Source of the DNA: an uncultured virus (IMG/VR IMGVR_UViG_3300038825_001787)
Taxonomy: Duplodnaviria; Heunggongvirae; Uroviricota; Caudoviricetes
Reading direction: 5' to 3' (one strand)
IMG/VR virus record: IMGVR_UViG_3300038825_001787
DNA: 64,000 nucleotides
The translations under genes were made by a program, and so were the position numbers. Under the pieces are notes generated by a model. It was not told where the DNA came from, searched no databases, and was given only the letters and a program-made list of their open reading frames with translations. Below, one piece after another: positions 1 through 39,292 of this stretch. Each line of letters starts with the position of its first letter. Within the stretch, counting starts at the first letter, position 1.

Positions 1-699
1 TTAAGTAAATATTTCGTCATAGAGTTCCTGTGGATTTTCTACACCATTGAAATGATACATACCGCGCATCTTATCTAACTTATACAACTGGACTTCTGAA
101 TCATCCATATTCACTGCAGTCTTCAAAAGTTTCTTGACACTTGCAGGCATTTCGTATTCGTCCGGTATAATGCCCTTCTTCCTAAGACTATAATTCATCA
201 CTGCAGTGTGTTCACTCAAGTATGTTTTCAAGTCGTCAATGATTTTGATGACAATGTCTTCATCAGTCATGCCCTCGTAAGACTCCTTGTTCTTATTACG
301 CTCAGGGACTGGTGCAGTGAATCCATCATTAACGATAATCATCTCTTCTGCAATCACTAGTGAGTCGTCTTCATCAATTGAATCTTCGACGGGTCTACTG
401 GGTGCCTCTATATTCAAATCGTCTAAGGATAGAAACGACGTGACAGACTTATCGTCGTAGTTACCAGAGGCCATTCTTCTATAATCCGTCAGGAAATTAC
501 TGTTCATGACACTTACTTCACTTCTTAGTTCACCAATTACTTTGTGAATATCAATAATTGCATTTAGAATATCTGTTTGTTGTTTAGAAAGAAATTGTAT
601 CCGTTCGCTTATTTTTACCAAGTGAGAACTACCGCCACCGAGGTTCGACCATGAGAAAGTATCGTCTGTCATATTACATCGTGACATTACAATACACAT
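1..699 (-). CDS. Hypothetical protein (coiled-coil N-terminal part, acidic linker)
   Basis: 232-aa ORF with stop at 1-3, divergent from the 733 gene; no recognisable motif; true start could be the later ATG (MTDDTF). Confidence 0.7.
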   Translation of the reverse strand: MCIVMSRCNMTDDTFSWSNLGGGSSHLVKISERIQFLSKQQTDILNAIIDIHKVIGELRSEVSVMNSNFLTDYRRMASGNYDDKSVTSFLSLDDLNIEAPSRPVEDSIDEDDSLVIAEEMIIVNDGFTAPVPERNKNKESYEGMTDEDIVIKIIDDLKTYLSEHTAVMNYSLRKKGIIPDEYEMPASVKKLLKTAVNMDDSEVQLYKLDKMRGMYHFNGVENPQELYDEIFT

Positions 700-732
700 A
701 AAAGTTAATGCTGTAACCCACCTCGGACAAGT

Positions 733-960
733 GTGTTGCCGTTACTAGTAGGTGTGGAAGATTCAGTATCTACTGCCAAAACAATACAATTGCTAGCAGA
801 CGCTGGTGTTAGGTATCGGTATCAAGATATGTTGAATACAGATTCTGTCTATGCTGATATGTTGCTAGCAATATCTGGTTCAGTAGAAGTACCGCAATTA
901 TTTGTTGGAGGTGATGTTTATATCGGCAACGACAAGATTTCCAGATATATTAGGAACTGA
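733..960 (+). CDS. Glutaredoxin-fold protein lacking the CxxC active site
   Basis: SGSVEVPQLFVGGDVYIG matches the glutaredoxin cis-Pro motif (TVPQIFxxGxxIG); 75 aa; no cysteines; TTAATG 28 nt upstream of the GTG start. Confidence 0.65.
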   Translation: MLPLLVGVEDSVSTAKTIQLLADAGVRYRYQDMLNTDSVYADMLLAISGSVEVPQLFVGGDVYIGNDKISRYIRN

Positions 961-16329: not shown

Positions 16330-18332
16330 ACAAAATGAATTTTATAAGAAATAATGGTGAAGTAGTAGAAGTTAATGACAGAGATGTCCAAACTCTTGAA
16401 AAGGGAAACGGCTACACACTTTATGGGGCAAGACACAATCCAAGTGGTGAACAGATGGTAGGCGTAGTATATGACGGTAGCAATATAGCAAAACAAGAAG
16501 CAGAATATGCTGACAACGATATAGGTGAAGCATACGACCCAAATGACACCATAACGGCAAATCCACCAAAAACCAAAGTAATAAGTTGGAAAAATCTTAG
16601 ACTCCAAAGTGCAATATCCGGTGAGAAAGCAGTCAGAAAGGGTGTAACTGGTATAGACATTGGAGGCAGTACGGCATCACTAGCAAGAAAACTAGGAAGT
16701 TTCATTGCGTCAGGACAAGTTTCTACAGGGGTTTCAATCAGAGACGATCCGTTATTGTTTGTTACTACCGCAGAAAATTGGTATAGTTACATTAAAAATA
16801 TGAATACAGTTGATATTGGCGCAGAGTTTGCTGCCGGTGTTTCGCACGCACAAAGATCTTCAAATGCATTATTCGCTCACGAGTGGGAAAGTGACCCAGG
16901 TCATCACAACTTGATGAGTCGTTTACTACCAGGAGTTGATACACAAGATGCAATTGCAAAGGGGCAAATTGCTTACGATATATTGACAAGAGGTCGAGAA
17001 ATACTTTCACAACAAGGATACGGTGCTACACAACAAGAAGTTATGCACAGACTTGTTTTCGACATACTGCGCTCAATGCCAGTAAAGCAATACAACTATT
17101 ACACACTCTATCAACTACATCCAGATGAAGGAAACGAAGTGTACGCAGAATTCAAAAGCAGATACATTCCTTTGGAAACAGCAGAAGTAGAAATGGTTTT
17201 AGAAATGCAGAGAGCGTTAGAATCAGAAGGTGATGCATATGCTTTTAGAACCACAACAAACGAACAAACCGGAATACTTTCTTCCAAGTTGATGAGAGCA
17301 GCAGTTGCTGATTACTCAGTGGGTGACACAGTGAATGTTAGAACCTTGTTGATGACACTACAAGCACCACCATATAACTACAGACCAAGAGCAGTCGATA
17401 TAGCAATGGCATCAGGTCAAAGTGGTGCAGCAGTGGCTAGTGGTACAACGTTTTTGGAATTTAATGTACAAAACAAATCAGCAGTTGACCTAGTTGTAAA
17501 TGCTGGTTCTGGTAGAAAATTAAGTAATGAAAAAATCGGCGCCTATGCACTAAATATAGATCCTCAGCATTTAGATAGGAATAATAATTTAAGAATAAGT
17601 AAAGCCCATGCTGATAATTACGAAACCATATTAATCGCTACAAGTCAATACAATACCGCACCAAAGTTCGTCGCAGTGAGAGTTGGTGGTGGCGGTAATA
17701 ATAATAAAGGTGGTAAATTCAAGATAATTGCGTACAATGAAGAGTATCTAAGACTTGGTGGTAACGACAGACCAGACCAAAGAGCAAGAGGAATTAGAAG
17801 AGGTCTTGGCAAACAAAATCCTGCCAAGAAAGCAAAGAAGAATCCAAGCGGTAAAGGCAGAGGAAACTTTCACTTTGTTCAACTATGGCCAACAACACAA
17901 TTAGATATTAAGAAAAGAGAACCAGTCGGTGGAATGGCAGGTGGTACTAGACATGGCACAGGCAAGTCAAAGAAAGGCCAAGGATATTGGACCAGAGGTC
18001 TAAACAAAGCAACCAAAGATATGCAAAACAAACAACTACTGATGATGGGAACACACAAGAAAACAGGCGAAGAAGCACCTTACAGAATTAAATTCCCAGT
18101 CTCTTTGTTCAAAATTGTTAACCATCCAACAGCAGGATACAAAACACTAATGCCCAAGAAAGATTTACAAAACAAGAAATTCATCGCAGCATACCAAGAT
18201 TTCATAAATCATTATGGATTACCAAAACACGCACCTTCGAAAGATACTTATAACCGATTTATTATACCGAAGTCAGAAAGAGCAAAGAGTCCTTACTACA
18301 TAGATATGCGTAAAAAAAGCGGTAAAAAGTGA
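16326..18332 (+). CDS. Multidomain hypothetical protein with Asn-Pro delimiters and basic C-terminal domain
   Basis: 668 aa; RHNPS, TANPP, KQNPAKKAKKNPSG. Confidence 0.8.
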   Translation: MNKMNFIRNNGEVVEVNDRDVQTLEKGNGYTLYGARHNPSGEQMVGVVYDGSNIAKQEAEYADNDIGEAYDPNDTITANPPKTKVISWKNLRLQSAISGEKAVRKGVTGIDIGGSTASLARKLGSFIASGQVSTGVSIRDDPLLFVTTAENWYSYIKNMNTVDIGAEFAAGVSHAQRSSNALFAHEWESDPGHHNLMSRLLPGVDTQDAIAKGQIAYDILTRGREILSQQGYGATQQEVMHRLVFDILRSMPVKQYNYYTLYQLHPDEGNEVYAEFKSRYIPLETAEVEMVLEMQRALESEGDAYAFRTTTNEQTGILSSKLMRAAVADYSVGDTVNVRTLLMTLQAPPYNYRPRAVDIAMASGQSGAAVASGTTFLEFNVQNKSAVDLVVNAGSGRKLSNEKIGAYALNIDPQHLDRNNNLRISKAHADNYETILIATSQYNTAPKFVAVRVGGGGNNNKGGKFKIIAYNEEYLRLGGNDRPDQRARGIRRGLGKQNPAKKAKKNPSGKGRGNFHFVQLWPTTQLDIKKREPVGGMAGGTRHGTGKSKKGQGYWTRGLNKATKDMQNKQLLMMGTHKKTGEEAPYRIKFPVSLFKIVNHPTAGYKTLMPKKDLQNKKFIAAYQDFINHYGLPKHAPSKDTYNRFIIPKSERAKSPYYIDMRKKSGKK

Positions 18333-20464
18333 TTAAAATGAGAGTAAAGGTACCAAGAGATTTGGCTGGTGGCTCGCTACTTAAAGCACACCAGTGGGCT
18401 AAATCCCAAACTGTCAGTTCTAACCCAGGTCATTCATCTAACGATTATAAGATACAAGGCGTAGATGGTACACCATTAACTCTTAGCGATTTGACAAGTA
18501 GAACATTTGATGAAGTATTGATAATATCCGGTGCAAAAAACAACCCACCAAGTGGGTATCCTTTGGAACCAACATATGGATATCCTTCCTTCAAGAAAAA
18601 TAGACTCGGTAACAAACCAACTGTATTGTTGGCTAAAGATGTAGACCCCTCAATGGTAGAAAGACTCGCCATGCAGAACGGTATGTTTAGCGCATTGAAT
18701 ACTGTAACCAAATTATTATACGCAGAAGAAAACATGGAGTCTGGTACAGACCCAAAAATAGCGGCATTATTGCAAACATATGCAAATGCTACCATGAAAG
18801 TTAAACATAACCCGGGTGGTAGGGCTTTCTTTGCAACAGATATCAACGATAGGTTTGCCGGAGTTGTTTCTCCCCAAGAGGCAGTTCGTTCATTCATTTC
18901 ATCTCAATATGGAATAGACCCAGACCCCGGCCGGTTTTCCCCAGACGGCAACACAGCAACTGGATATATGATTGAGAAAGCAAGAATATTAGATATGTAC
19001 AACCTAAATGACTCGTCAATTTTAGACGAATTTCAAGATAATGTACTGACACCTTTCTTGGTTTCATCAATTGCAAACGCTAAGTTGTTGAAAGCAATGC
19101 AGCATCAAGATTACATAGATATAACAAATACACAGTTGAAGATGCCAGCATCTGGAGAAACGTGGAAAAAATTCAATTTGCTATTACCAACCCAAGCAGA
19201 GGATTACTACGATGGTAGAGATTATGCTTTGATTGCGCATCCTTTGTTTATGCGGGATTCAATAGGGTTGGCAGTGATGAGCGAAAAACTTGTTAAACAT
19301 ATATCAAAAATAGTTAAGGAGTATCCTAGAAACACATCAAAAGCAAAGAATAGTAGAACTATGAAGCACCAACGAACAATAATTGACTCATTCAGAGGAG
19401 CCATAGAGACAGATTTAGTATTTAACATGGCGATTAGCCAAGCCGATGTAATGAGAGATGGTACAACACCAGAAGAAGTTTTAGAGGCATTGAATAGCAT
19501 ATTCTCATCAACAACCAGAGATACGGATCTAATTCGATTTACACAAAACCTAAAGCCGGATTTTCTTGTTTCTTACCAAAGAGATGTCGCAGGATTTAGA
19601 CCAACTGCACCTCCGTATTGGCCTAAACCAGTTGTCTTGGCTTTAATGGACGCCATTAGAAATAACATACAACCTATAATTAAAAAAGAATTAGATCTTT
19701 CTACAGCATTTGCTCCATACATATCAAAACCTTCTGAAATGACCGAAGATCAGATTAAACTAGCCGAGGCATACAGAACCAAAATATTAGAAGAAAAAAA
19801 TATTGATATAGCAATAAGTAACCTAAATGCAGGACCTAATTCTACCCTCTATAAACTTTGGAAAAAGGATTCGAAGAAATTCAAAAGCAATGAAATAACA
19901 ACTGATAACCGGAAAGAAGCAATTCAAGAAATACAAGCGTTATTGGCAACAAAACCTAAAGTAGAGAGAGTAGACTCAGAAACTATACATATACTAAGTA
20001 TATTTATGGAGATAGAAGATACTTGTAGAGGTAAGTATAGATATACTATGACAGAGAATGATAGAGCCTTTGCCCTATATCTATTAGACGATGTAATAAG
20101 AAGAATCACAAAGAAAACTGGTGCCAGTGAGGAACCAGCCGACCCAGACGACTCAGAAGTAAATAATAGGGTAATGAGAATATTGGAAGGATATAGAGAT
20201 GACACTGGTGGTAGCGATGCTAAACAACTTGCTAACAGAATTGGTTTTGAAGCAAAGTTAGATGCCATAGTAGCACAAGCAAGGCGAGAAATACTCGCGG
20301 CAGATGATGACAAAAAAGCCGATGTGGTACGTCGTTATAGAGATAGATTGTTTAAACTGTCTAATAAGAAGGGGTTGCCAATGTGGGCTGTGGAAAAAAT
20401 TAGGGGTTTAAGGGTTGACGAATCGTATAACTTTATGGCAACTGATTTTGGTTTGAGGGAATGA
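18329..20464 (+). CDS. Multidomain hypothetical protein with Asn-Pro delimiters
   Basis: 711 aa, GTGA overlap with previous gene; SSNPG, KNNPP, KHNPG. Confidence 0.8.
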   Translation: MIKMRVKVPRDLAGGSLLKAHQWAKSQTVSSNPGHSSNDYKIQGVDGTPLTLSDLTSRTFDEVLIISGAKNNPPSGYPLEPTYGYPSFKKNRLGNKPTVLLAKDVDPSMVERLAMQNGMFSALNTVTKLLYAEENMESGTDPKIAALLQTYANATMKVKHNPGGRAFFATDINDRFAGVVSPQEAVRSFISSQYGIDPDPGRFSPDGNTATGYMIEKARILDMYNLNDSSILDEFQDNVLTPFLVSSIANAKLLKAMQHQDYIDITNTQLKMPASGETWKKFNLLLPTQAEDYYDGRDYALIAHPLFMRDSIGLAVMSEKLVKHISKIVKEYPRNTSKAKNSRTMKHQRTIIDSFRGAIETDLVFNMAISQADVMRDGTTPEEVLEALNSIFSSTTRDTDLIRFTQNLKPDFLVSYQRDVAGFRPTAPPYWPKPVVLALMDAIRNNIQPIIKKELDLSTAFAPYISKPSEMTEDQIKLAEAYRTKILEEKNIDIAISNLNAGPNSTLYKLWKKDSKKFKSNEITTDNRKEAIQEIQALLATKPKVERVDSETIHILSIFMEIEDTCRGKYRYTMTENDRAFALYLLDDVIRRITKKTGASEEPADPDDSEVNNRVMRILEGYRDDTGGSDAKQLANRIGFEAKLDAIVAQARREILAADDDKKADVVRRYRDRLFKLSNKKGLPMWAVEKIRGLRVDESYNFMATDFGLRE
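19960..20100. other. TpA-rich island inside CDS
   Basis: aactatacatatactaagtatatttatggagatagaagatacttgtagaggtaagtatagatatactatg. Confidence 0.65.
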
Positions 20465-21613: not shown

Positions 21614-23059
21614 ATGACTAGCGCAGTCTATTGTGACAATTGCGGTATAAAGAATAACCCAAGTCATATGCACTGTAAAATGTGTGCTAGCGAATTACCC
21701 ACCCCTGTAAGACAAAATCCCTTGTATTCTAAGTTAACAAGAGACCGACCCAAAGCAGTCGTTTTTGACTTAGACATGACTTTGTTTGACAATTCACAAA
21801 GATTCACAGACGCACGACGCGCAGGTCTTGTCGATAAAGAAGGCAAGGCAATTGTTAAGAGATTGACAAGCAAAGAAAAAGCAATGAAGAAAAGAAATAA
21901 GTTTCTTTATTCACAAAAAGAATTGTCAAAAGATGTCGTGATTCCGGGCGCAACCCAGTTGGTAAGTGATTTGAAAAACGATGGTTACACTGTGATTTAT
22001 CTTACTGCAAGACCAGACAAGTATCAAGAGCAAACAATTAAACAACTGGAAAGTAAAGGCTTTCCATTATTTAGAGACATGGATGGAAACCCATTGGTCT
22101 TTTCTAAACCGGCAAGCAGGACACAAGTTCCTGCCTTTAAGGGAAACAAAGTTAGAGAACTACTTGGTAACTATAAGATAGAAATGGTCTTCGATGACAG
22201 TAAGAACAATCTAGAAGAAATTGCTAAGTTAAAAATACCAGGACTATACGCTAGTATTTCAGACCACGTTAAACACAATCCAGATCGTAGCGAGTTTGCT
22301 TATGTAGCAGAAGATGGAGCAAAAGGCCCGTTTGTAACTAGTGACCTTAGTGAACCCGACATTGACAAAGCGTACGAAGTTATGCCCGAACGTGACGGCG
22401 ATCCTAACAACAGAGATTCTACCGTTGAAGATACGGCACATTTAGAAGAAGAACGTATGAAACAAATGACACTGGACGACTTCTCACTAATAAACCCAAT
22501 AGGACCAAGAGCATTACCAAACCCACTACCAAAACCAAAGAAAAAGAAACTTTCAAACGGTAAGTATCGCAAAGAACCAAGGAAAGTTTACATCACTAGA
22601 ATGATGGATAAGAACAAGAAGATGAAAACCGACTTCCCAGATAGAAAGCAAAGATATGCAGTTACTATGACACTTGTGGAAAAGTTCTATGGTAAAACAA
22701 AAGCAAACCCAGTCAAAACAAACCCAGCACATCCAAGTAAAGTAGAGAAGGCTAAAAAACTTTACAAACATATGAATGGTAAAGAACCAGCAAAGATCGA
22801 GAAAAAGAAACTTGACTTAGGTGATGTATGGTATCAAGTTGGTGAAGGTGGATGTTGGCAAATTGGTTACATATCTGGTAAAGATAACGGCAGAGATGAC
22901 CAAAAGTACACCCATGTTTTCAATGAAGAGAGCAAAGACGGCAACTTCCCTAAGTTGTACGCAACAATGCCAGAAAACGGCAAACCAATGCTAGTCATTA
23001 CTGGTGGTTCATGGAAGATTAAAACAGATAGCGAAGGAGTCGCTTGGATATACGATTGA
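21614..23059 (+). CDS. Multidomain protein: Zn ribbon + HAD phosphatase (PNKP 3'-phosphatase-like) + small phage-type domains, Asn-Pro delimited
   Basis: CDNC/CKMC; HAD motifs VVFDLDMTLFD, YLTARP, K, VFDD; KTDFPDRKQRYAV domain; C-terminal KLYKHMNGKEP...YTHVF...PKLY...ITGG domain; 7 delimiter-like NP motifs. Confidence 0.8.
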   Translation: MTSAVYCDNCGIKNNPSHMHCKMCASELPTPVRQNPLYSKLTRDRPKAVVFDLDMTLFDNSQRFTDARRAGLVDKEGKAIVKRLTSKEKAMKKRNKFLYSQKELSKDVVIPGATQLVSDLKNDGYTVIYLTARPDKYQEQTIKQLESKGFPLFRDMDGNPLVFSKPASRTQVPAFKGNKVRELLGNYKIEMVFDDSKNNLEEIAKLKIPGLYASISDHVKHNPDRSEFAYVAEDGAKGPFVTSDLSEPDIDKAYEVMPERDGDPNNRDSTVEDTAHLEEERMKQMTLDDFSLINPIGPRALPNPLPKPKKKKLSNGKYRKEPRKVYITRMMDKNKKMKTDFPDRKQRYAVTMTLVEKFYGKTKANPVKTNPAHPSKVEKAKKLYKHMNGKEPAKIEKKKLDLGDVWYQVGEGGCWQIGYISGKDNGRDDQKYTHVFNEESKDGNFPKLYATMPENGKPMLVITGGSWKIKTDSEGVAWIYD

Positions 23060-30400: not shown

Positions 30401-31560
30401 TATTACATACAGTAAACTCCACATACTCTCCCAAAGAAAAGGTAAATGATGCAAAAGTTCCAGGCTTTGTGTTTGACGTAGTTGTAGTTGAAAAGATAAA
30501 AACCAATCCCGCGTTCTTTGGTGTCCCTAAGAAACTAAATTCATGGATGGATGTTTATGTGGACTCACAACCATTGGGTCTCGATGATGACGGCAATCAA
30601 AAATATAAAGACGTAATAGTACAAGGAACATTAGTTAGAATGCCAGTGTATGGTGGTAGAAAAGCAGACGTTCCTTTGTTGAGTAAAGGTTGGGAGTCTG
30701 AGAGCGTTGAAAAGCGTATACCGGGAGAATTTGACAAAGCAGCAAGAAGACACTTGCGTGGAGAGTCCGGATACTCAGTTTGGCTTGACGAAAAAAGTGC
30801 AAACAGTATTAGCAAAGTAACACCACATTATACACAAACTAGTTTACCACTTTCTTATTCGACTGCAGTTGACGACGCATTTGGTTATGGTAAAGATGGT
30901 AACAGAGTCTTATTTGGTAAAGAACCGAACAAAATAACTCAAATAACTGATAGGTACAACACCAAGTCGTATAAGACACAAGTAGATTTACACGACATGA
31001 CTAACAAAGAACAGGCAGAAGAAGATGCCAAAGTACTTATGAAAATGTTCAATTATGTGCCAGGTGGGAAAATATTAGACCCAAATAAAAAAGAAGTAGA
31101 AGTGAGACCTGGTAGTGGACTTAGTTTAGAATATCAAGAAGCATTCGAGGCAGACAACGAACGCTTGCGTAAAGCACTAAAACCAACAGAGTTTGCACAC
31201 TTTGGTGCAAGAATTAATCCACCAATTAAACAACAAGCATGGTCTGCATACGTCGATAAATATGTAAAGACCCACGCTAAATGGGAGTCTGAACCAGAAC
31301 CTAAAGAAAGTTGGGAAAGATACAGTGTAGGAGAATTTCCAATCCACTTTGTAGATATGTTAGAAAAGGAAAGATTATTGTTGAAAGCCCAGTCCGAACA
31401 TTCGTTAACAGAAGATGAGTTGCGAATAGTCAACGAAACTTTTAGTGCTGAACCAACAAGCGACTTATTAGAAAGTCCACTTGATGACTTATTTGAAACG
31501 GAAGAAGAGGAGGAGGCAGTCGAATATGAACCAAGTGACGAAGACTACGACGTCGAGTGA
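27409..31560 (+). CDS. LigD-like fusion: AEP primase-polymerase + degenerate ATP-dependent ligase core + ligase OB domain, followed by NP-delimited unknown domains
   Basis: AEP: MAVIDID, MYTGKNFQIW, IWFD, FFSLH, AVPVSIDEI; ligase-like YAKARGID, TLVGQL; OB: MVVLG, IGNVYVGV, YVLGKA, TEPSIVVEVAYED. Confidence 0.7.
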   Translation: MSDNALLFREFDKFAQLETVDKETLTEDDITFFLDNFLSPNVFFWHKGQSILCANAEDRETGQKPFDMSGKSFTEAVNELKPLLTKKIKDSYGSVSQEANAFGYDPAPKTVKQLAEALAYDAGMNTEKWKGMSEIERLQHPVTTNAQVRANAIKSRLAQYHERVLPFMLRKTMHHPISFIRYSQTRGHIPTPLRDTKDVMEVTLRSEDDLQEILSSKRYKDTDFPGALDEEIRGMVWDPAPTRKNLKMAVIDIDNPAKLKKEKLRDVTYKAATRIVDAGHPYIIMYTGKNFQIWMGANAEQPLGDAPDVIDYLRGLLNGLGNFEGKNQAIAANEIWFDEGVLANRMEPTRMFFSLHYPLRDLQKTYSGLAAVPVSIDEIKTFDPLMHAHPETVLLNFDTYASVISAFYDAVKIGQDYGMDTETDPECIRLEEKYPDHQSISLIDNSSNSIGVKLEDISSKVADEESAFVYAKARGIDAVITYNERGGIRFGGNTLSATKISGTGVSKIESRENTLSTLITRTGIVIHQDYITRDLQRFCQSKKISEITLVGQLVSTDYVGAQLEEKEIRGVIARKGEILPEEFKRLRFVANKIVSYNNDEVPLEVMSKELGKINTGRISPSPNAYYTQPIGTKVKKLYQQIRNQRTGRELVVLGEEKYIITSRQTMNMVVLGMDPKTTSYQQNSREIGNVYVGVIKTDRNRGPIYYVLGKAEIALKKEDRIKLKQLVVGENNENIVPINLRNDDFVKDIVLTEPSIVVEVAYEDIGKRMTEGLPSHFLPGTQAGRPSIYRIVPVKRYVTKMLGARIIGIKEDLNPLRETDVSYKQDNLIKIQGTAPKGGFSIVQSLPNPIKRHNLHFPYDRYLGEEIDTKVPWKMSEKAFDKLSRLTKNKSLIGYVDGKRIYYDEADYWVMHGSNEDFFWASMTFRSIQSPFKLRGIDIMTSAKMCAEYGINWHLVIAEGTFYWLYCNIENDEIRKKHAKYIKDEDHKGNIEEILSDLLHTVNSTYSPKEKVNDAKVPGFVFDVVVVEKIKTNPAFFGVPKKLNSWMDVYVDSQPLGLDDDGNQKYKDVIVQGTLVRMPVYGGRKADVPLLSKGWESESVEKRIPGEFDKAARRHLRGESGYSVWLDEKSANSISKVTPHYTQTSLPLSYSTAVDDAFGYGKDGNRVLFGKEPNKITQITDRYNTKSYKTQVDLHDMTNKEQAEEDAKVLMKMFNYVPGGKILDPNKKEVEVRPGSGLSLEYQEAFEADNERLRKALKPTEFAHFGARINPPIKQQAWSAYVDKYVKTHAKWESEPEPKESWERYSVGEFPIHFVDMLEKERLLLKAQSEHSLTEDELRIVNETFSAEPTSDLLESPLDDLFETEEEEEAVEYEPSDEDYDVE
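28685..28800. other. TpA-rich island inside CDS
   Basis: tctaatagataatagtagtaatagtataggtgttaagttagaagatatatctagtaaagtagc. Confidence 0.6.
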
Positions 31561-34500
31561 TGTTGCTTCTATTCTGAGTTTTCCAGAAAGGGGAGAAATA
31601 CTTTCTGGGAACAAAATTTTGGACACAGAAACCAAGTACCAAAATGGTGTATTCAAATATAGAATCAACTTTACAAGAGATGTAAGAAGAAGTGATGTAC
31701 CAAATATTTTAAGAGCGTTTTTCAATAACGGAATGGTATCAATAAATGGAGTAGACCACATAGTAGAGAACCATGATTACCAAACAAGAACTACTAGAAA
31801 GAACACAGTGGTTATTGGCTCTATGCAAATTACCCCGTTAAGTATGGCTAATCCTGTGCAAAAGAAACTAACTGCTTTGCAAGACTTTGACAATGAATAC
31901 GAAAAGATGGTGTTGACATCACCAGAAACTTATTTCCGAGCATTTTCATACAGAGGTTTTGACGGTCCAGCATTTAGGTCAAAGTTGTTTTCTTTTGTAT
32001 CTAACATGGGTGAAAACTACGGCTATTGTGACGATAAAACAATTTACCATCGTAGAGCATCGTTAGTGATGCCCAAAATTAAAATCACAAAGGCACCAGA
32101 AAATGCAAAGATGTTTTATCACACTCACCCAAAAAGAGACGAACCCTCACTTAGTTCTGCTGACGACTATCTTATTTATTTTGATATGAGTCACAAACCA
32201 AGAAACATTAGGCACTTCTACACAGTTATGGCAGACAGAATGGATTACTTTCACATAGTCCCAAAGCATTCTAAGAAGAAAGATTATGTCAAGATAAATG
32301 AAGACAAATTTTTGGAAGAAGTAGACAATCAAATTGACGAAGCAGGTAAAAGATTAGATGAAGTAATGTCCAATGAGACCTACCAGGACGACTTGGTATA
32401 TTGTGAAAAAGTAACTAGAGAAGTAGTCAAGTGGCTAAATAAAAAGTACGAAAAATATTTTACAATAACTTACAAATGCCATTACAAGGTAAAAAAGAAT
32501 CCAGAAGAACCGAGCAGCGATGACTTGCACTTGGGTGATGAGTTCATCGGTAAAGCACTAAACGATTTGAAAACAGGTGAAGCATCGTGGCCTGAATTCA
32601 AACCAAAAGATAGACCACAAGAAAAATATGCGTATTGGCACTCAAAATACTTTGCGATGAATAAAGATGCAAAAGGACTTGGATACATGGGTTTGATGCC
32701 AGGAGACGATAGAAGGTTTGCTCATTTCCTACATTCCCCCTATAGAGGTAGTAACTATACTTACGATGATATACTAAGTATACTATGTATAAGTAATGAT
32801 ATAAAGATTAGAGATGCTAAGATAAGAGATGGTAAAGAGATTGCCAGTAGAATAGAGGATATCTTAGATTACCTAGAGATAGATAACGAAGAGATCAGAG
32901 GAGATATTATTCTCTATGATGCAGTAGTAGCAGTAGATGCTTATGGTGACTTAGCGCAAGGAATTGGTGAAGAACATAATTTTATTTTACCCATAGCAGA
33001 TTTTTCAATAAAAAGTGTAGAAGCAATGAATGACGTTGATAGCGGTAAGAAAGATTTGGAACGGGCAAAACACGACATAATGTTCGTTCTAAAAGAAAAG
33101 ATGGCCAAGACCGTTACAAAGGCATTGGGAAAAAAGAATAAGCAATTAGAAGTTATGCGAGAGCCGGTGCCAGTCTATGGACAAGACGGACCAGCAGTAT
33201 CCAAAGTAGGAATCAATCCTCCCGTTCAAAGAAGCAAGAGAGAGTACCAGATGACGCTACCGTCTAAGATATTTGACAATCCGGAACTGTTATCCGAAAT
33301 CTTAGAGCCTTTCAAAAAAAATGAACAATTAAGAAACGCTAAAAATGCTTACACGGTTATCATACCAGTAGATAATTCTGCAACCACCTTTGTCATACAA
33401 AGTACAGGAACGGTGCAAGTAATCAGTCCGTCAAAAGGATACCCAAGAGCAGACGACCCAGATGAGGCAACATTGCAAGCAGTAAGAAAATTGGTTGACA
33501 AGTTAAACGAGTTTGGTTTTGAAATGAACACAGATGACATAGCATTTGGTACAACAGAACCGATGCGTAACCCGCGTTCTGGAGTTATCATCGCAGTAAC
33601 TGGACCAATCCGTTCAACTAAAAACAAGTTTATAGATTCATTGTCAAAGAGAATCAATGCCAATGTAGTTACAACATTTACTACAAAGACTTTGAAAGAG
33701 TACGAAAAAAGGTCAGACATCGTAGAAGTCACGGATGAAATATTTGACAGAATGGAAATCAACGGAGAATTAGTCGTAGTAACAAAGTCTTACGATGGCC
33801 ATAGAAGAGGGTTTAGCAAGAAAGACATGAAAGAAAAAGACTTCATGTTAGTTAATGCAAGAATAAAAGATTTACATTTTTTAATCAGCGCAAGTCCGTC
33901 TGTAATCAGTTTCTACCTGCACCCGACTAACACAGAGGCTGTAATAGAATCGTATCTTTCGGATAGCGTATCACCACAAGAAGCAAGACGTGTCGCAGGT
34001 ATGATTGACGACACGTTAGACGCAGCAGAAGGTGAAGTAGAGCATATCATTGAATATGATATTGAAAGACCTGCTGCCGCGATTGAAGAAGTTTACAATA
34101 CAATCCCAAAACCAAATCCAATGCCCAAACCAATTGGTTCTATAATGGGTTCTTCACATGGAAACTATTATCTGCGAGTTAGAAACAATCCTTCACACAA
34201 TAGTTGTCCAGCAGTAACGCAGAACTTGGAGATGAACACTAAGAATAGAAACTCTGCAATAAAAGCAGATTACATAAAATATGGCCCACTTAATTTAGCA
34301 GATGAAGATTACTGGGTTAAAGCAGCAGAACACTGGAACACAACACCAGAAGTTGCTAAGGAATCAAAGTGTGGTAACTGTGTTGCATTTGACATATCAC
34401 CAAGAATGTTAGATTGTATGCCAGGATCTGTACAAGATGACGGGCAATTAGGAATGTGTTGGATGCACAATTTCAAGTGCCATTCTGCTAGGACTTGTTA

Positions 34501-37500
34501 CACTTGGGCAGCAGGTGGGCCAATAACAGAGGATTCTGTTTCTTACGATTGGCAAGAAAGGTCAGCAAAATCCAACCCTCAAAAAAAAATTTCAATTAGA
34601 ATAGATGAAAGCACAAACCCAGAAAAGAAGTTGATGGCTGTATTTACCAAACCAAATGGTAGAACAAAGACTGTCCACTTCGGTGCTAGAGGAATGAGTG
34701 ATTATACTCAACACAAAGATAAAGACCGAATGAAGAACTACCTTGCACGTCACGGTGGAATGGGAGAAGATTGGAATGACCCAATGACAGCAGGTGCGTT
34801 GTCAAGATGGATTCTATGGGGCAAACCAAGTCTCAGAGAATCGTTTAACGACTTCAAGAAGAGATTCAACTTGGAAGGAGTCATGGCTGTGACTAACACA
34901 AAGATGAATCCAAGAATTCCAAAGAAGTATGAAGGGCAAGACCCAAGCGAGCATTCTGACCTTTACACAGACGAAGACCCAGAAGGAACAATCCAAGGCT
35001 TGGGGTTTAAAGACAAAACAACAGCAAAGAAATCAATTCAATTGATTAAGAAGTCAGGAAAAACCCACGCACATAAGATACAAGCAGCAATGGCTATGGA
35101 ACAAAGAGCAAGATTCCATCCACACGCAACAAAGGGAATCAAAGAGGCTCAGAAGATATATGCAGAGTTCATCGAAGAAATGAAAGAGAAGACAAAGAGC
35201 AATCCAGCATTTATCGTAGGGCAAGGAGGCAATACATTCGATGTAAGAGTAGTAGCGCCCACCCGTGACCCTATTATGATTGAGTCATTGAGAGCAGCAA
35301 CCGATAAGTCGTTCAAACATCACAAGTGGTATGTTAAGCACCATCTTGATTACGTCATGGCAATCATGAAAAGAATGCCAAAAGTAATGGGCAATTGGGA
35401 TAAACAAATGGTTGATATGGTTTGGATGCACGACTATCCGAAAATGATGGGCAAGGGCCAAGATTTGTCAGTTGTTAACGATTTACTAACAACTCATCGG
35501 GGAGAAGACTATGCACATCAAGTCGTTCATCAACTTCACTTAATGGAGAGACTCAAGAAGTCTGATTGGAACCCGCTCACAGAATATTCTATGGTAGCCG
35601 CCAATCTTTCTACCGCAGACGCCTTATCACATTACTATGGCCCATTCTTCCAAATATACATTGACGAGAACCCTGATATGTCGATGGAAGAAATAAAGAA
35701 AAGCAATCGCCAAAAGTTAGCGAAAGACAAACTCAAACTACGAGCAGGGCCAATGAAAGATGGATTGGATTCAATTAGGTTCCAATACAAAGGACGTAAA
35801 GTCAAGATAGTTGGTAATGAACACATCAAGGCATTAATTGAAAAGAAGAACCCAAGCAAAACTCCCGAAGGCAGAAAAATTCCAAAGAAGTATCTCAAGG
35901 GATTAAACAAGGAAGAGATGGCGATAGCCGCTAAGGAAATCGACAAGGGATACAAGTATGACATAGACGATCCAAAAGCATACGAGTATTGGAAGTCAGA
36001 TATTCAAGCAACCGCAAGAGGATACAAGACCGTACCAAGTAAGTACAAAAAGAAGTTTATACAAATGTACGGCCCACTTCCCGAAGAAGGAAAGTTCCTA
36101 GATAAGATGGCAAAGGCCACCAAGATAAAGAAGTCAATTCTGGAAAAGGTCTACGACAAGGGACTAGCAGCATGGAGAGGTGGACACAGACCTGGCGTTC
36201 AACAACATCAATGGGCTGCAGGTAGAGTTTATTCTTTCGTCACACTTGGTAACACGGTGAAGAAAGGAAACAAGAAGATGCCAGATTACTCTTTGGCAAT
36301 AGAGGCTGGAATAATTAAAGACAACCCACCATCATTTATTGCCGCTAGAGACCCTAAAAAATGGGCAAAGAGATATGATAGAATAATTAAAATGAGTGGT
36401 AAAGAACTCATGGAAGAGGCTAACGAACAAGCAGCAGAAAGGGGATTAACGATTCAATTAACCATAACCGAACCAAATATGAAAGAAATGATGAAAGGGC
36501 GTAAGAACTTCCCACTACAACCAAAGTACGAAAAACTGTATAAAGCGTATCTTGCATCCAACAAGACCGCCATGATTTCGATTGCCAAAGGAGGAACAAT
36601 TATTGAGAGTCTTGAGTTTACATTAGTCGAAGAATCAGCAAAGGAATTAATAGATTACCTTGAGTCTCGTCAAAGGTGGCCTAAGAAAAAAGCAGTTTTG
36701 CCGCTCATAGGAAAGATTGTTGTTGAAGACGGGCACGCATTTTTTGAAACAGATATTTTCCCTAAATTAGAAAGTTTACAGAGAAAAAGCAGATTCCCAA
36801 TAGCAATTGGTGGTTTGGGTGGGTATGAAATGTCAGAAGGACAACAAGGAAAGGGATACTATGGAATCATTAAGATGTATCAAGCAGGTTTCTTAGAAGA
36901 CAATGGGATTGAAGCATTTGGCTCAGGCGAAAGCCCAATGCGCTCAGACTTGTACCAGTCATACGGCTGGCTTACACCGTACTCGTACAAAGAAAACTAT
37001 CCCTATCCATCAACTGCAGCAGAGTATTATTTGAATCTGAATAAGAAAGACAAGTTACCAAACAAATCCGCCTATTACGACAGTATCTACCGGCCAGTTT
37101 ACTCAGGAACAAAATCAAATCCAAATCCATATTACAATGCACACCTTTATGCAAGTGGTAGCACAGACCCATTTTTCCCAGGAGACGTACCTGTAGCCCC
37201 ACCAGCATTGTTAAAGAATCCACCAAGTAAAGTAATCATCGTAAGTGGCCCATCTGGTTCTGGAAAATCAACCATATCCAAAGCAATAGCAAAAGAACTT
37301 GGCGGCACTCTTGTACCAACTGTTACAACAAGACCCAGAAGGCCAAAAGAGAAAGAAGGAGAAGATAGAATCTTCGTTTCTAAAGATGAATTCAAAGAAA
37401 TGATAAACAACAACGAGTTTGTTGAATACAAGCAACACAAAGATGGAGTCTTTTACGGCAGAAGGAAAGTAGATATGGACGACATATCAATTGTAGAAGT

Positions 37501-37837
37501 TAGCCTAAAAGGAATGAAAGAATATAAAAAACTTTATCCAGATTCGTTTGCAGTGTTCTTAGAACCAGACAAGTCTCCGAGAGAGATAGAACAAAGATTA
37601 TTGTCAAGAGGCGGAATGTCGGAAGCAAACGCAAAAGCCAGAGCAAGCATAATTCCTAAGCAAGTTGCAGCAGCGAAAACAATGCCATATGATTTATTCA
37701 CTAAATCAAGAACAGGTAAGTATTCAGAAGTAGCAAAAGAAATCATCAGTCAAATACCAATGGCTAATCCAGGTTGGCGACACGGAGAAGCGATGGATGA
37801 AGAAGACGACCCATTTGCAGATCAGTTTGAAGCATAG
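31526..37837 (+). CDS. Giant polyvalent/polyprotein: JAB-like, two guanylate-kinase-like, Cys-rich, DUF5754-like, HD-like, DUF5824-like and GNAT-like domains
   Basis: About 2100 aa; start moved to ATG 31526 after GAGGAGG; FYHTHP..SLSSADD; SGPSGSGKST..TTRPRRPKEKEGED; CGNC/CWMH/CHSARTC; VHFGARGMSDYTQH; H..MHD..AD; GLAAWRGGHRPG; QGKGY. Confidence 0.85.
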   Translation: MNQVTKTTTSSDVASILSFPERGEILSGNKILDTETKYQNGVFKYRINFTRDVRRSDVPNILRAFFNNGMVSINGVDHIVENHDYQTRTTRKNTVVIGSMQITPLSMANPVQKKLTALQDFDNEYEKMVLTSPETYFRAFSYRGFDGPAFRSKLFSFVSNMGENYGYCDDKTIYHRRASLVMPKIKITKAPENAKMFYHTHPKRDEPSLSSADDYLIYFDMSHKPRNIRHFYTVMADRMDYFHIVPKHSKKKDYVKINEDKFLEEVDNQIDEAGKRLDEVMSNETYQDDLVYCEKVTREVVKWLNKKYEKYFTITYKCHYKVKKNPEEPSSDDLHLGDEFIGKALNDLKTGEASWPEFKPKDRPQEKYAYWHSKYFAMNKDAKGLGYMGLMPGDDRRFAHFLHSPYRGSNYTYDDILSILCISNDIKIRDAKIRDGKEIASRIEDILDYLEIDNEEIRGDIILYDAVVAVDAYGDLAQGIGEEHNFILPIADFSIKSVEAMNDVDSGKKDLERAKHDIMFVLKEKMAKTVTKALGKKNKQLEVMREPVPVYGQDGPAVSKVGINPPVQRSKREYQMTLPSKIFDNPELLSEILEPFKKNEQLRNAKNAYTVIIPVDNSATTFVIQSTGTVQVISPSKGYPRADDPDEATLQAVRKLVDKLNEFGFEMNTDDIAFGTTEPMRNPRSGVIIAVTGPIRSTKNKFIDSLSKRINANVVTTFTTKTLKEYEKRSDIVEVTDEIFDRMEINGELVVVTKSYDGHRRGFSKKDMKEKDFMLVNARIKDLHFLISASPSVISFYLHPTNTEAVIESYLSDSVSPQEARRVAGMIDDTLDAAEGEVEHIIEYDIERPAAAIEEVYNTIPKPNPMPKPIGSIMGSSHGNYYLRVRNNPSHNSCPAVTQNLEMNTKNRNSAIKADYIKYGPLNLADEDYWVKAAEHWNTTPEVAKESKCGNCVAFDISPRMLDCMPGSVQDDGQLGMCWMHNFKCHSARTCYTWAAGGPITEDSVSYDWQERSAKSNPQKKISIRIDESTNPEKKLMAVFTKPNGRTKTVHFGARGMSDYTQHKDKDRMKNYLARHGGMGEDWNDPMTAGALSRWILWGKPSLRESFNDFKKRFNLEGVMAVTNTKMNPRIPKKYEGQDPSEHSDLYTDEDPEGTIQGLGFKDKTTAKKSIQLIKKSGKTHAHKIQAAMAMEQRARFHPHATKGIKEAQKIYAEFIEEMKEKTKSNPAFIVGQGGNTFDVRVVAPTRDPIMIESLRAATDKSFKHHKWYVKHHLDYVMAIMKRMPKVMGNWDKQMVDMVWMHDYPKMMGKGQDLSVVNDLLTTHRGEDYAHQVVHQLHLMERLKKSDWNPLTEYSMVAANLSTADALSHYYGPFFQIYIDENPDMSMEEIKKSNRQKLAKDKLKLRAGPMKDGLDSIRFQYKGRKVKIVGNEHIKALIEKKNPSKTPEGRKIPKKYLKGLNKEEMAIAAKEIDKGYKYDIDDPKAYEYWKSDIQATARGYKTVPSKYKKKFIQMYGPLPEEGKFLDKMAKATKIKKSILEKVYDKGLAAWRGGHRPGVQQHQWAAGRVYSFVTLGNTVKKGNKKMPDYSLAIEAGIIKDNPPSFIAARDPKKWAKRYDRIIKMSGKELMEEANEQAAERGLTIQLTITEPNMKEMMKGRKNFPLQPKYEKLYKAYLASNKTAMISIAKGGTIIESLEFTLVEESAKELIDYLESRQRWPKKKAVLPLIGKIVVEDGHAFFETDIFPKLESLQRKSRFPIAIGGLGGYEMSEGQQGKGYYGIIKMYQAGFLEDNGIEAFGSGESPMRSDLYQSYGWLTPYSYKENYPYPSTAAEYYLNLNKKDKLPNKSAYYDSIYRPVYSGTKSNPNPYYNAHLYASGSTDPFFPGDVPVAPPALLKNPPSKVIIVSGPSGSGKSTISKAIAKELGGTLVPTVTTRPRRPKEKEGEDRIFVSKDEFKEMINNNEFVEYKQHKDGVFYGRRKVDMDDISIVEVSLKGMKEYKKLYPDSFAVFLEPDKSPREIEQRLLSRGGMSEANAKARASIIPKQVAAAKTMPYDLFTKSRTGKYSEVAKEIISQIPMANPGWRHGEAMDEEDDPFADQFEA
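32740..32940. other. TpA-rich island inside CDS
   Basis: ctatagaggtagtaactatacttacgatgatatactaagtatactatgtataagt...cttagattacctagagatagata. Confidence 0.7.
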
Positions 37838-38010: not shown

Positions 38011-38715
38011 ATGCGTCTGACAGGAAGGTTCATTGAATCATTCAAACACAGGCATGGTGTTGTACTAGGTATTACTAGAAGTGGTAAGACTTTCTTGGCC
38101 GCAAAGGTCTTACAACGAATACAAGAAACAGGTGGTCACACATTGTTTATTGACCCGAAGCATGATGACGGATATTCCCATCTTGGTACAATTTGTCATT
38201 CACCAATAGAAGTTTACGAGCAACTTTTATTGAAGAATCCAGCAATTATTTTTAGAACACCCGGAACATCAGAAGAAAGAATAGAAGCATTAGATAGAGT
38301 AGTAGAGTTAATGTTTACATTACAAAGGACAGCAGGATTCAAAAGAATCCGACGTGTTATTGCAATTGACGAAATACAGTTATTCGTTAAGAAAGGTAAC
38401 TCTCGTGCAGTAGAAATGATTTGGACAATTGGAGCAGGTATTGGAATCGTAGGTATGGCATTGACACAAAGAATCCAATTGCTTAACGAAACTGCATGGT
38501 CACAATCAGACAATAAAGTAATTTTCAGAATAGAAGATAGACCAGAGTATCTTAGAAGTAGAAACTTGGAACACTATGTTGAGCAATTAGATTTCTTTAC
38601 CGACCCAATGAATAAATATTGGTTTTACTATACACAAGGCGGAGGAAAGTGGAAGAAGCATGAACCAGTTCCGTTGGTTGACAAGACCAAATCACTAAAT
38701 CTAAGTCGTTTTTAA
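38011..38715 (+). CDS. A32/FtsK-HerA-superfamily genome packaging ATPase
   Basis: Walker A GITRSGKT, LFIDPK, Walker B IAIDEIQ, ALTQR, SQSD; 234 aa, as in tailless icosahedral viruses. Confidence 0.82.
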   Translation: MRLTGRFIESFKHRHGVVLGITRSGKTFLAAKVLQRIQETGGHTLFIDPKHDDGYSHLGTICHSPIEVYEQLLLKNPAIIFRTPGTSEERIEALDRVVELMFTLQRTAGFKRIRRVIAIDEIQLFVKKGNSRAVEMIWTIGAGIGIVGMALTQRIQLLNETAWSQSDNKVIFRIEDRPEYLRSRNLEHYVEQLDFFTDPMNKYWFYYTQGGGKWKKHEPVPLVDKTKSLNLSRF

Positions 38716-38755: not shown

Positions 38756-39292
38756 ATGGCCATCACTATTAGCACACCCCACTTCAAAGAATCAGTAGAT
38801 GACCCTAATATCAAAACATTTCTTACCCAACTAGAATCTTTTTTAGACGCAAAGAATATGCCCTACTATAGTGTAAGAGGTCAGTCTTTGAAAACAATGT
38901 TGGATTTATCCACATCTGAAGCAAGAGGTACTACTTACAATAACGAACTCGCAGCAGCACTAACTGTTAGTGATATACACATTGAATTAAGAGCGTATGA
39001 TTTCGATACACATGAAGATTGGTCTGACTCCGATTTTGTTTTTGGTAAATTAATAGGATATACTGATGAAGAGTTATTGAAGAACTTCGAAGATACTATT
39101 GGTTCTAGAGCATCATATGAAACAAACATAATAACACCGATTGGTCATTATTCTAGCGCATTGAGTGAGTTTGTTTATCAAATACCTAGTATAGTAATAT
39201 ATGTTAATGTAGATAGTAGTAATCTATACCCTACTATAACAGAAAGTATAACAGATATTATTTTGGATTACGAGGAGCGTAGAACTTCATAG
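38756..39292 (+). CDS. Hypothetical acidic protein
   Basis: 178-aa ORF with alpha/beta pattern; no confident family. Confidence 0.7.
   Translation: MAITISTPHFKESVDDPNIKTFLTQLESFLDAKNMPYYSVRGQSLKTMLDLSTSEARGTTYNNELAAALTVSDIHIELRAYDFDTHEDWSDSDFVFGKLIGYTDEELLKNFEDTIGSRASYETNIITPIGHYSSALSEFVYQIPSIVIYVNVDSSNLYPTITESITDIILDYEERRTS
39180..39260. other. TpA-rich island inside CDS
   Basis: tacctagtatagtaatatatgttaatgtagatagtagtaatctataccctactataac. Confidence 0.65.

Follow-up and report, generated by a model that had tools for sequence, protein, structure and literature searches.

The 64,000-nucleotide stretch analysed here (the window) comes from an uncultured tailed virus (Caudoviricetes; IMG/VR record IMGVR_UViG_3300038825_001787) and contains a giant open reading frame (ORF) at 31526-37837 (+), which runs from an ATG at 31526 to a stop codon at 37835-37837 and encodes 2103 amino acids (aa). 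We found that this protein is built of cassettes whose boundary is the dipeptide Asn-Pro (NP), and that NP is the exact point at which cassettes enter, leave or are exchanged, even between two genes of the virus. Our best explanation, to which we assign a probability of about 0.5, is that the ORF encodes a polyprotein bracketed by NP motifs and would be cut at NP, most probably by a domain of its own that resembles JAB/MPN metallopeptidases. An earlier sequence-only reading of the window, made without database searches, had described a polyprotein of ~2100 aa at 31526..37837, had listed 14 NP sites in it, and had proposed NP as a processing or packaging tag between swappable domains. Its coordinates are right, and all 14 sites lie where it put them.

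Asn-Pro is over-represented in the giant protein and conserved in its family

The giant protein contains 19 NP dipeptides where 5.46 are expected from its composition, which gives NP the highest z score (5.8) among all 400 dipeptides. None of 20,000 shuffles of the protein reached this count (shuffle maximum 17). The excess is gene-specific, because the remaining 36 ORFs of the window together hold 53 NP against 34.1 expected; a genome-wide NP bias was rejected on this count. It is also a property of the family: over 121 sequences (120 listed homologues) we counted 1728 NP against 545 expected (3.17-fold), and the excess is at least 2.2-fold in every one of the 121.

The codons used at NP in the giant protein vary, with AAT 12 times and AAC 7 times for Asn, and CCA 11 times, CCT 5 times and CCG 3 times for Pro. 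The constraint therefore acts on the protein rather than on the DNA, and a cause at the DNA level, such as a conserved nucleotide joint or a recombination site, was rejected on the grounds that two Asn and three Pro codons occur. Microhomology (AAG ATG AAY CC) was seen once only, at a single insertion.

Conservation was assessed in 105 homologues of the N-terminal core, with a median identity of 37%. Among these, NP109, NP325 and NP682 are 100% conserved, NP564 is 94-95% conserved and NP864 is 95/91% conserved. The residues that flank the linker NPs are mostly variable, for example at most 30% conserved at NP109. NP585 and NP888 are not conserved. NP is thus under strict selection at the protein level. 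From 614 unique contexts we derived a longer junction motif, with P/T/V/I at -3, K/R at -2 (65%) and S/P at +2, that is, [P/T/V/I]-[K/R]-x-N-P-[S/P]; the giant protein has 11 NP junctions.

NP sites coincide with the edges of modules

The endpoints of BLASTP alignments between family members served to mark, without recourse to annotation, where homology begins and breaks off. Because the sequences are related, these endpoints are not independent events, a dependence that the random-position control keeps. With the giant protein as query, an NP is found no more than 5 aa away from 62% of 845 internal endpoints, compared with a mean of 9.8% and a maximum of 35% over 2000 random placements of 19 sites; 203 of 471 alignment ends in the query fall exactly on the Pro of an NP. 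Family-wide, 51.7% of 24,804 internal alignment starts lie at -5 to 0 of an NP and 54.2% of 34,853 internal ends at +1 to +5, with 34.7% exactly on the Pro, compared with 3-5% for random positions and at most 18% for ten other dipeptides. Expressed as breakpoint clusters, 698 of 840 (83%) lie no more than 6 aa from an NP, compared with 75 of 840 (9%) when positions are random.

Domain annotation and structure prediction agree with the breakpoints. Of the 68 Pfam domain hits in 25 proteins, 39.4 would be expected to contain an NP, but only 5 do. In 19 of 20 hits to guanylate kinase (GK), the domain, when projected to its full extent, begins 1-4 aa behind one NP and ends 1-6 aa short of the next, and DUF5824 domains end about 10 and 9 aa from theirs in 14 of 16 cases. 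An AlphaFold model of residues 1-865 (pLDDT 79.9, pTM 0.41) falls below a pLDDT of 50 in seven internal stretches, and four of these (109-114, 324-330, 566-570 and 677-684) are the conserved NPs. The proposal that NP lies between modules and delimits swappable domains is supported by all three lines, and so is its qualification that some NPs lie inside domains: NP585 and NP888 are the non-conserved sites mentioned above, and NP1031 falls inside the match to DUF5754.

Cutting the giant protein at its junction NPs yields the following map.

31526..31852 (+), aa 1-109: module 1, beta-rich, always N-terminal, ending at the invariant NP109
31853..32500 (+), aa 110-325: JAB/MPN-like domain, ending at the invariant NP325
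32501..33217 (+), aa 326-564: helical module, ending at NP564
33218..33571 (+), aa 565-682: alpha/beta module, ending at the invariant NP682, with the internal non-conserved NP585
33572..34117 (+), aa 683-864: guanylate-kinase fold with a degenerate P-loop, ending at NP864
34118..34189 (+), aa 865-888: short spacer from NP864 to NP888
34190..34576 (+), aa 889-1017: Cys-rich module with free-standing homologues of ~140-150 aa that lack NP
34577..34909 (+), aa 1018-1128: DUF5754 module (Pfam), NP1031 inside the match
34910..35203 (+), aa 1129-1226: HSDLYTDE module, 56.6% identical to the N-terminus of a 708-aa protein of cyanophage S-SM2
35204..35851 (+), aa 1227-1442: module without an assigned family (earlier labelled 'HD-like', unconfirmed), with internal NP1349 and NP1382
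35852..36325 (+), aa 1443-1600: DUF5824 module (Pfam)
36326..37120 (+), aa 1601-1865: module without an assigned family (earlier labelled 'GNAT-like', unconfirmed)
37121..37219 (+), aa 1866-1898: spacer with a tandem NPNP
37220..37768 (+), aa 1899-2081: guanylate kinase with an intact P-loop
37769..37834 (+), aa 2082-2103: acidic C-terminal tail past the last NP

The domain labels of the sequence-only reading fared unevenly. Guanylate kinase, DUF5824 and DUF5754 were recovered by Pfam, and its JAB-like label is moderately supported. Pfam scans of single modules at E<=5 gave nothing useful, and no HD or GNAT hit at that threshold in the giant protein; HD and GNAT modules do exist in its relatives. 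A protein atlas search with residues 1-682 gave scores of at most 0.81, which we treat as leads only.

The C-terminal GK scores above the cut-off of its family model (PF00625, 78.1 bits against a cut-off of 25.2, E 8.6e-22, residues 1902-2050) and has the Walker A sequence GPSGSGKS. The structural alignment of the GK fold in the core spans 682..864. In all 28 of the 28 family proteins with two GK modules, the first lacks the Walker A loop and the second has it; among members with one GK module, the loop is kept in 55 of 79.

The acidic tail, which forms the C-terminus of most family members, follows the pattern W/R-H-G ... D-P-F ... F, with R2085, D2095, P2096, F2097 and F2101 at least 90% conserved. 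One 184-aa protein (P0182) consists of a DUF5824 module, an NP and this tail. When all frames of at least 40 codons in the window were read from stop to stop, the tail motif occurred in the giant protein only, plus one spurious 54-codon frame. That the tail is a targeting or docking peptide is a guess.

Cassettes are exchanged from NP to NP among relatives

When all family proteins were cut at NP, the segments fell into 165 clusters, 71 of which have at least three members. Clusters have narrow length ranges (e.g. 152-162, 98-105 and 104-106 aa) and variable positions along the proteins. The cargo identified in 24 relatives comprises GK, DUF5824, DUF5754, DUF7831, Ham1, SET, HD, YbjQ, NUDIX, GNAT, glutaredoxin, nucleoside diphosphate kinase (NDK), PAP2 and a Csx3-like match. 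The last lies in P0120 (residues 1527-1575, E 2.3e-5); Csx3 proteins are CRISPR-associated. An NDK cassette occurs in P0093 (1559-1695), and a complete ATP-dependent DNA ligase forms a cassette in P0286 (1493-1847), a distant protein to which we return below.

The clearest case of exchange is a syntenic relative, L001, which has the same neighbours, including the order of the terminase-like gene, and whose identity over residues 1-1136 is 76%. L001 departs from the query in NP-to-NP cassettes only. It has an extra cassette inserted between ...TKMNP and ...AKMNP-RIPKK, and residues 1227-1865 of the query, from NP1226 to NP1865, are replaced in it by one other cassette, after which homology resumes at a shared NPNPYYNAH. 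Domain gains and losses between close relatives thus end at NP.

Modules also occur on their own. Free-standing homologues of the Cys-rich module form one cluster of 32 sequences, one of them on a 114,848-bp contig; they contain no NP and end at the position where the giant protein reads AKSNP. The termini of 27 shorter homologues of the family (contigs >20 kb) are mixed and were not used as a statistic. Several of them (P0137, P0161, P0166, P0182 and P0238) have a terminus within 3 aa of an NP position, and others start inside modules, resembling broken gene calls.

A further homologue lies in Synechococcus phage S-SM2, where the ~95 N-terminal aa of SSM2_109 (L002 595-1479) match module 1129-1226. 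This 708-aa protein starts M-S-N-P-R-I-P, with the NP at residues 3-4, two residues past the start. The retained NP joint hints that cassettes have passed from one virus group to another.

Another gene of the window belongs to an NP-cassette family

The exchange extends to a second gene:

21614..23059 (+): a further protein of NP cassettes (481 aa), made up of a Zn-ribbon-like N-terminus, a HAD phosphatase and a C-terminal domain that is conserved

This protein has 8 NP against 1.7 expected. In its homologues P0180, P0187, P0198 and P0200 the boundary NPs are preserved behind the Zn-ribbon-like start and the HAD domain as well as in front of the C-terminal domain; NP159, an internal site, is not. 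Three of them (P0180, P0187 and P0200) carry extra cassettes at these boundary NPs, including the Cys-rich module of the giant protein. The family lacks a JAB-like domain. That a second gene family without this domain nevertheless shares the boundaries and the Cys-rich cassette would fit processing in trans.

Two further ORFs without a recognisable family contain [K/R]-x-NP: 16326-18332 (+) at residues 38, 498 and 506, and 18329-20464 (+) at residues 72 and 161.

A JAB/MPN-like domain accompanies the NP motif

Residues 110-325 are the most conserved part of the giant protein, and the domain is always present in the family. Residues conserved to at least 95% are E163, H199-T-H201-P, E206-P-S208, S211 and D214. 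Folded alone, the segment gave a confident model (pLDDT 88.3, pTM 0.86). Foldseek returned no match to this model at E<=0.001; the weaker rows are nearly all JAB/MPN proteins, led by CSN5 (E 6.3e-3) and followed by BRCC36, Rpn11 and AMSH. A weak lead from the protein atlas points the same way, in that 13% of the proteins in a cluster with a score of 0.76 carry a Prok-JAB annotation. The canonical JAMM catalytic motif is E...HxHx7Sx2D, and the spacing from HxH to S..D is longer here than that x7. We regard the label 'JAB-like' as moderately supported.

A HMMER scan of 1.84 billion protein representatives found 75 with the JAB-like domain, of which 60 belong to the giant-protein family or are close fragments and 15 are distant (21-33% identity). 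The distant proteins are 198-3387 aa long, carry the domain mostly near the C-terminus, and together contain 101 NP against 40.2 expected, mostly as [K/R]-x-NPP. Their modules are bracketed in the same manner. In P0290 a GK (52-218) lies between NP35 and NP241, a DUF5754 between NP241 and NP357, and a DUF5824 between NP491 and NP657; in P0286 a GK lies between NP1213 and NP1437, and the complete two-domain DNA ligase between NP1437 and NP1873. The two families agree in their putative catalytic residues, and the elements GE, HTHP, EPS, S..D and DR.D.F are invariant across 19 aligned sequences from the two.

In two deeply diverged families, then, the JAB-like domain is found together with NP-rich modular proteins, and in each system with NP-delimited cassettes a JAB-like domain was present somewhere. 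No other observation argues as strongly that domain and motif may belong together, although it is a correlation among related mobile proteins. A predicted complex of the JAB-like domain with the C-terminal NP-tail (score 0.02, mark 0.32) speaks neither for nor against binding.

Proteolytic cleavage at NP and alternative explanations

We propose that the giant protein is a self-contained polyprotein of a tailed marine virus. It consists of a constant five-module N-terminal core, which includes the JAB/MPN-like, metallopeptidase-type domain, and a train of cassettes that varies and holds chiefly enzymes of the nucleotide pool and of modification. Each of the units is bracketed by [P/T/V/I]-[K/R]-x-Asn-Pro-[S/P] in a flexible linker, and the NP motifs would be proteolytic processing sites, cut in cis or in trans, most probably by the JAB-like domain, with the bond cut lying either between Asn and Pro or after the Pro. 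One translation product would in this way give rise to many separate small enzymes.

Cleavage is favoured because the NPs are invariant within variable linkers, because they belong to an extended motif, because the free-standing homologues lack NP, and because the JAB-like domain co-occurs with NP richness. On these grounds the balance tips towards NP sites being cleaved in some way, and the odds that the JAB-like domain is the enzyme that cuts them come near to even. As for the processing tag of the sequence-only reading, its swappable cargo modules delimited by NP are present, and its cleavage is plausible. The virion loading that it also envisaged finds no support; the sole context is that the gene lies directly upstream of that of a terminase-like ATPase. 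More tentatively, marine archaeal tailed viruses might possess a plug-and-play system, made of a [K/R]-x-N-P delimiter and a dedicated, diverged JAB/MPN endopeptidase and used by at least two genes per genome. Such an enzyme, with a specificity for Asn-Pro in linkers, would be one not described so far, and the system would be old enough to be shared by families that are 21-33% identical; we hold these ideas with the same reserve.

Several points weigh against this explanation. Characterised JAB enzymes cut after a ubiquitin-like C-terminal tail, and Pro at P1' is tolerated by few proteases. For the RadC-type JAB domains of phage polyvalent proteins, an action on nucleic acids has been argued (PMC5512222). 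For residues 110-325 there was no JAB, MPN or RadC hit in Pfam or NCBIfam at E<=5, and the fold scores for the domain are weak. The endpoint counts derive from related sequences and are non-independent, and ~17% of breakpoint clusters lie farther than 6 aa from any NP. These NP-less clusters include variable module starts 10-20 aa away from an NP, and a few breakpoint sites are degenerate, with NA or NG in place of NP. The case for cleavage itself comes from sequence and predicted structure and is indirect. Finally, the P-loop-less GK of the core is retained in 28/28 two-GK proteins, which suggests a scaffold role for the core. In that role the core would not need to be fully dismantled, and may not be.

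The retained GK and the indirect nature of the case for cleavage also fit an uncut multi-enzyme of the beads-on-a-string kind, in which NP would be a structural linker or domain cap that insulates folds and is kept as a productive recombination end. NP is a common pair in turns and at helix N-caps, and NP585 begins the helix 586-596; the S-SM2 homologue, moreover, keeps its NP at residues 3-4. A linker, however, needs no exact dipeptide, yet NP is invariant amid variable flanks, with a basic residue at -2 in 65% of junctions. The free-standing Cys-rich homologues lack NP, and in two distant families the motif goes along with a protease-like domain. In addition, just 1-10 aa separate the domains from their bracketing NPs, a short linker for a multi-enzyme that stays tethered. 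We consider this explanation unlikely, albeit one to be taken seriously.

A second alternative keeps the cleavage and changes the enzyme: NP would be cut by a prohead protease of the virus or by a host protease, and the JAB-like domain would be otherwise employed, for example in processing nucleic acids or nucleotides, a role that has been proposed for RadC. Against this stand the co-occurrence of the JAB-like domain with NP richness in a second architecture and the outcome of the PHROGs, Pfam and NCBIfam scans of the 36 other window ORFs, very divergent proteins among which no prohead protease or peptidase family was recognised. We judge it distinctly improbable.

Self-cleavage at Asn-Pro through cyclisation of the Asn side chain, as in the asparagine peptide lyases FlhB/YscU, reovirus mu1 and RsgI, would require no protease at all. 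FlhB and YscU autocleave at an NPTH site, the scissile bond of reovirus mu1 is Asn-Pro, and Pro after Asn blocks the competing deamidation route. PMC10328401 gives Asn-Pro as the scissile pair in RsgI and in the outer capsid proteins (VP5/mu1) of reoviruses and aquareoviruses. The precedent sites lie in a strained fold, however, and the NPs of the giant protein lie in flexible, low-confidence, unstructured stretches between unrelated modules; NPTH accounts for 0 of the 1709 family NPs counted, and no FlhB-type or similar family was hit in the Pfam scans. The sequence-only reading had cited FlhB/YscU/EscU and the Pro-Pro endopeptidases as precedents; as families neither holds, the former for the reasons just given and the latter in that no such domain turned up in the Pfam scans. 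We consider the explanation by Asn cyclisation very improbable.

A translational break of the 2A/StopGo kind, which would release separate chains without proteolysis and might suit a host that is probably an archaeon, with ribosome and release factor presumably resembling eukaryotic ones, is close to refuted by motif counts: 2A peptides have the consensus D(V/I)ExNPGP, with the break before the final Pro, and of the 1709 family NPs 10 read NPGP, as do 0 of the 19 in the query; the residues upstream of NP are the variable ends of unrelated domains rather than a conserved 2A-like peptide.

Genomic setting and probable host

The gene for the giant protein is embedded in a long series of genes, all on the same strand. 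A 100% identical 2103-aa database protein is present on a 137,882-bp contig. Database names for the family are 'hypothetical protein' or 'guanylate kinase'. No record of a GenBank phage collection covers at least 80% of the giant protein, and 51 records match single modules only; among the other window ORFs we found no paralogue of it at a blastp threshold of 1e-3.

Upstream lie large ORFs without recognisable families, among them the 481-aa HAD-phosphatase protein (21614-23059). Directly downstream lies a gene for a terminase-like ATPase (38011-38715; phrog_2666, E 1.8e-13). This terminase-large-subunit-like ATPase is just 234 aa long and is followed by a separate 178-aa ORF at 38756-39292 (+); the same pair occurs in L001 at 13232-13936 and 13977-14513. 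The two may represent one terminase that has been split, or an ATPase whose nuclease is encoded separately. Further downstream are genes for a tail-spike-like protein (54856-57294) and a chaperonin (59260-60813, +). The large subunit of a ribonucleotide reductase is encoded at 3014-4948 (+) (phrog_367, E 1.6e-125) and adds to the nucleotide-metabolism theme of the element. PHROGs, Pfam and NCBIfam named only the ribonucleotide reductase, HAD phosphatase, terminase-like ATPase, tail-spike-like protein, a methyltransferase and the chaperonin in the window, and with these libraries no capsid, portal or prohead protease was recognised among its ORFs.

The chaperonin is the single clue to the domain of the host. 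Among solved structures, the best relatives are group II chaperonins of archaea (thermosomes; E 9e-116), and the viruses of Marine Group II archaea (magroviruses) carry thermosome genes, according to PMC5434244. From this one gene we infer that the element is a tailed virus, probably of marine archaea.

Significance and comparison with known systems

If the NP sites are cut, tailed viruses of prokaryotes would use true polyprotein expression with a universal junction, a strategy mainly known from eukaryotic viruses. Mature proteins could then be read by a simple rule from the hundreds of giant marine viral ORFs that lack annotation, JAB/MPN enzymes would gain a new class of substrate, and a compact natural pair of protease and tag would be at hand for protein co-expression. 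Even without cleavage, the exchange of cassettes from NP to NP is a clean natural case of domain shuffling with a defined joint. The cargo (GK, NDK, NUDIX, Ham1, HD, Csx3-like and DNA ligase) points to manipulation of the host nucleotide pool, and these viruses, probably of abundant ocean archaea, possibly also manipulate cyclic-nucleotide defence signalling.

The polyproteins of picorna-, flavi- and coronaviruses are cut at short consensus sites by a protease of the virus itself, and among viruses with double-stranded DNA, pp220 and pp62 of African swine fever virus are cut at Gly-Gly-X. The giant protein is like these in being one product with short conserved junction motifs and a candidate protease within. 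It differs in that their gene order is fixed and their products are structural or replicase proteins, whereas the virus considered here, a tailed one that infects prokaryotes, shuffles small metabolic enzymes, joins them at Asn-Pro and has a JAB/MPN-like domain as candidate protease. With asparagine peptide lyases it shares the Asn-Pro pair, which is their scissile bond and is found here at 11 junctions of the query; those proteins have a single site in one dedicated fold, whereas here there are many linker sites, no NPTH and no homology. To the JAB/MPN+ (JAMM) peptidases, such as Rpn11, CSN5, AMSH, archaeal JAMM1 and Cap3 of CBASS, the likeness lies in their being the best, albeit weak, structural matches of residues 110-325, and in single residues: the upstream Glu, the HxH, and the Ser and Asp on the following helix are all invariant here.

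In the literature searched, with subscription journals outside its scope, we found no description of an NP-delimited viral polyprotein. The system would, on present sequence evidence, be a variant of both viral polyproteins and phage polyvalent proteins that this literature has not previously described. The closest concept is that of the polyvalent proteins of phages and plasmids. Polyvalent proteins of phages and conjugative elements join 2-15 unrelated enzymatic domains in mosaic architectures, with a predicted releasing peptidase and a recurrent JAB (RadC) domain (Iyer et al. 2017, PMC5512222). The giant protein is likewise a large mobile-element protein with many unrelated enzymatic domains (two GKs, DUF5754, DUF5824 and unassigned modules in the query) and a mosaic architecture, as seen in the 165 segment clusters and the cassette differences with L001. 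It differs in several respects. The predicted processor of polyvalent proteins is a zincin-like MPTase, of which Pfam scans of the query and 24 relatives found no family member, and here there is a JAB-like domain instead. The available part of that account describes no common cleavage motif, and here there is NP. The domain repertoire here is GK, NUDIX, Ham1, NDK, HD, glutaredoxin, SET, GNAT, DUF5754 and DUF5824. Polyvalent examples of more than 1000 aa are, in that account, almost all bacterial (PMC5512222), whereas this virus carries an archaeal-type thermosome gene.

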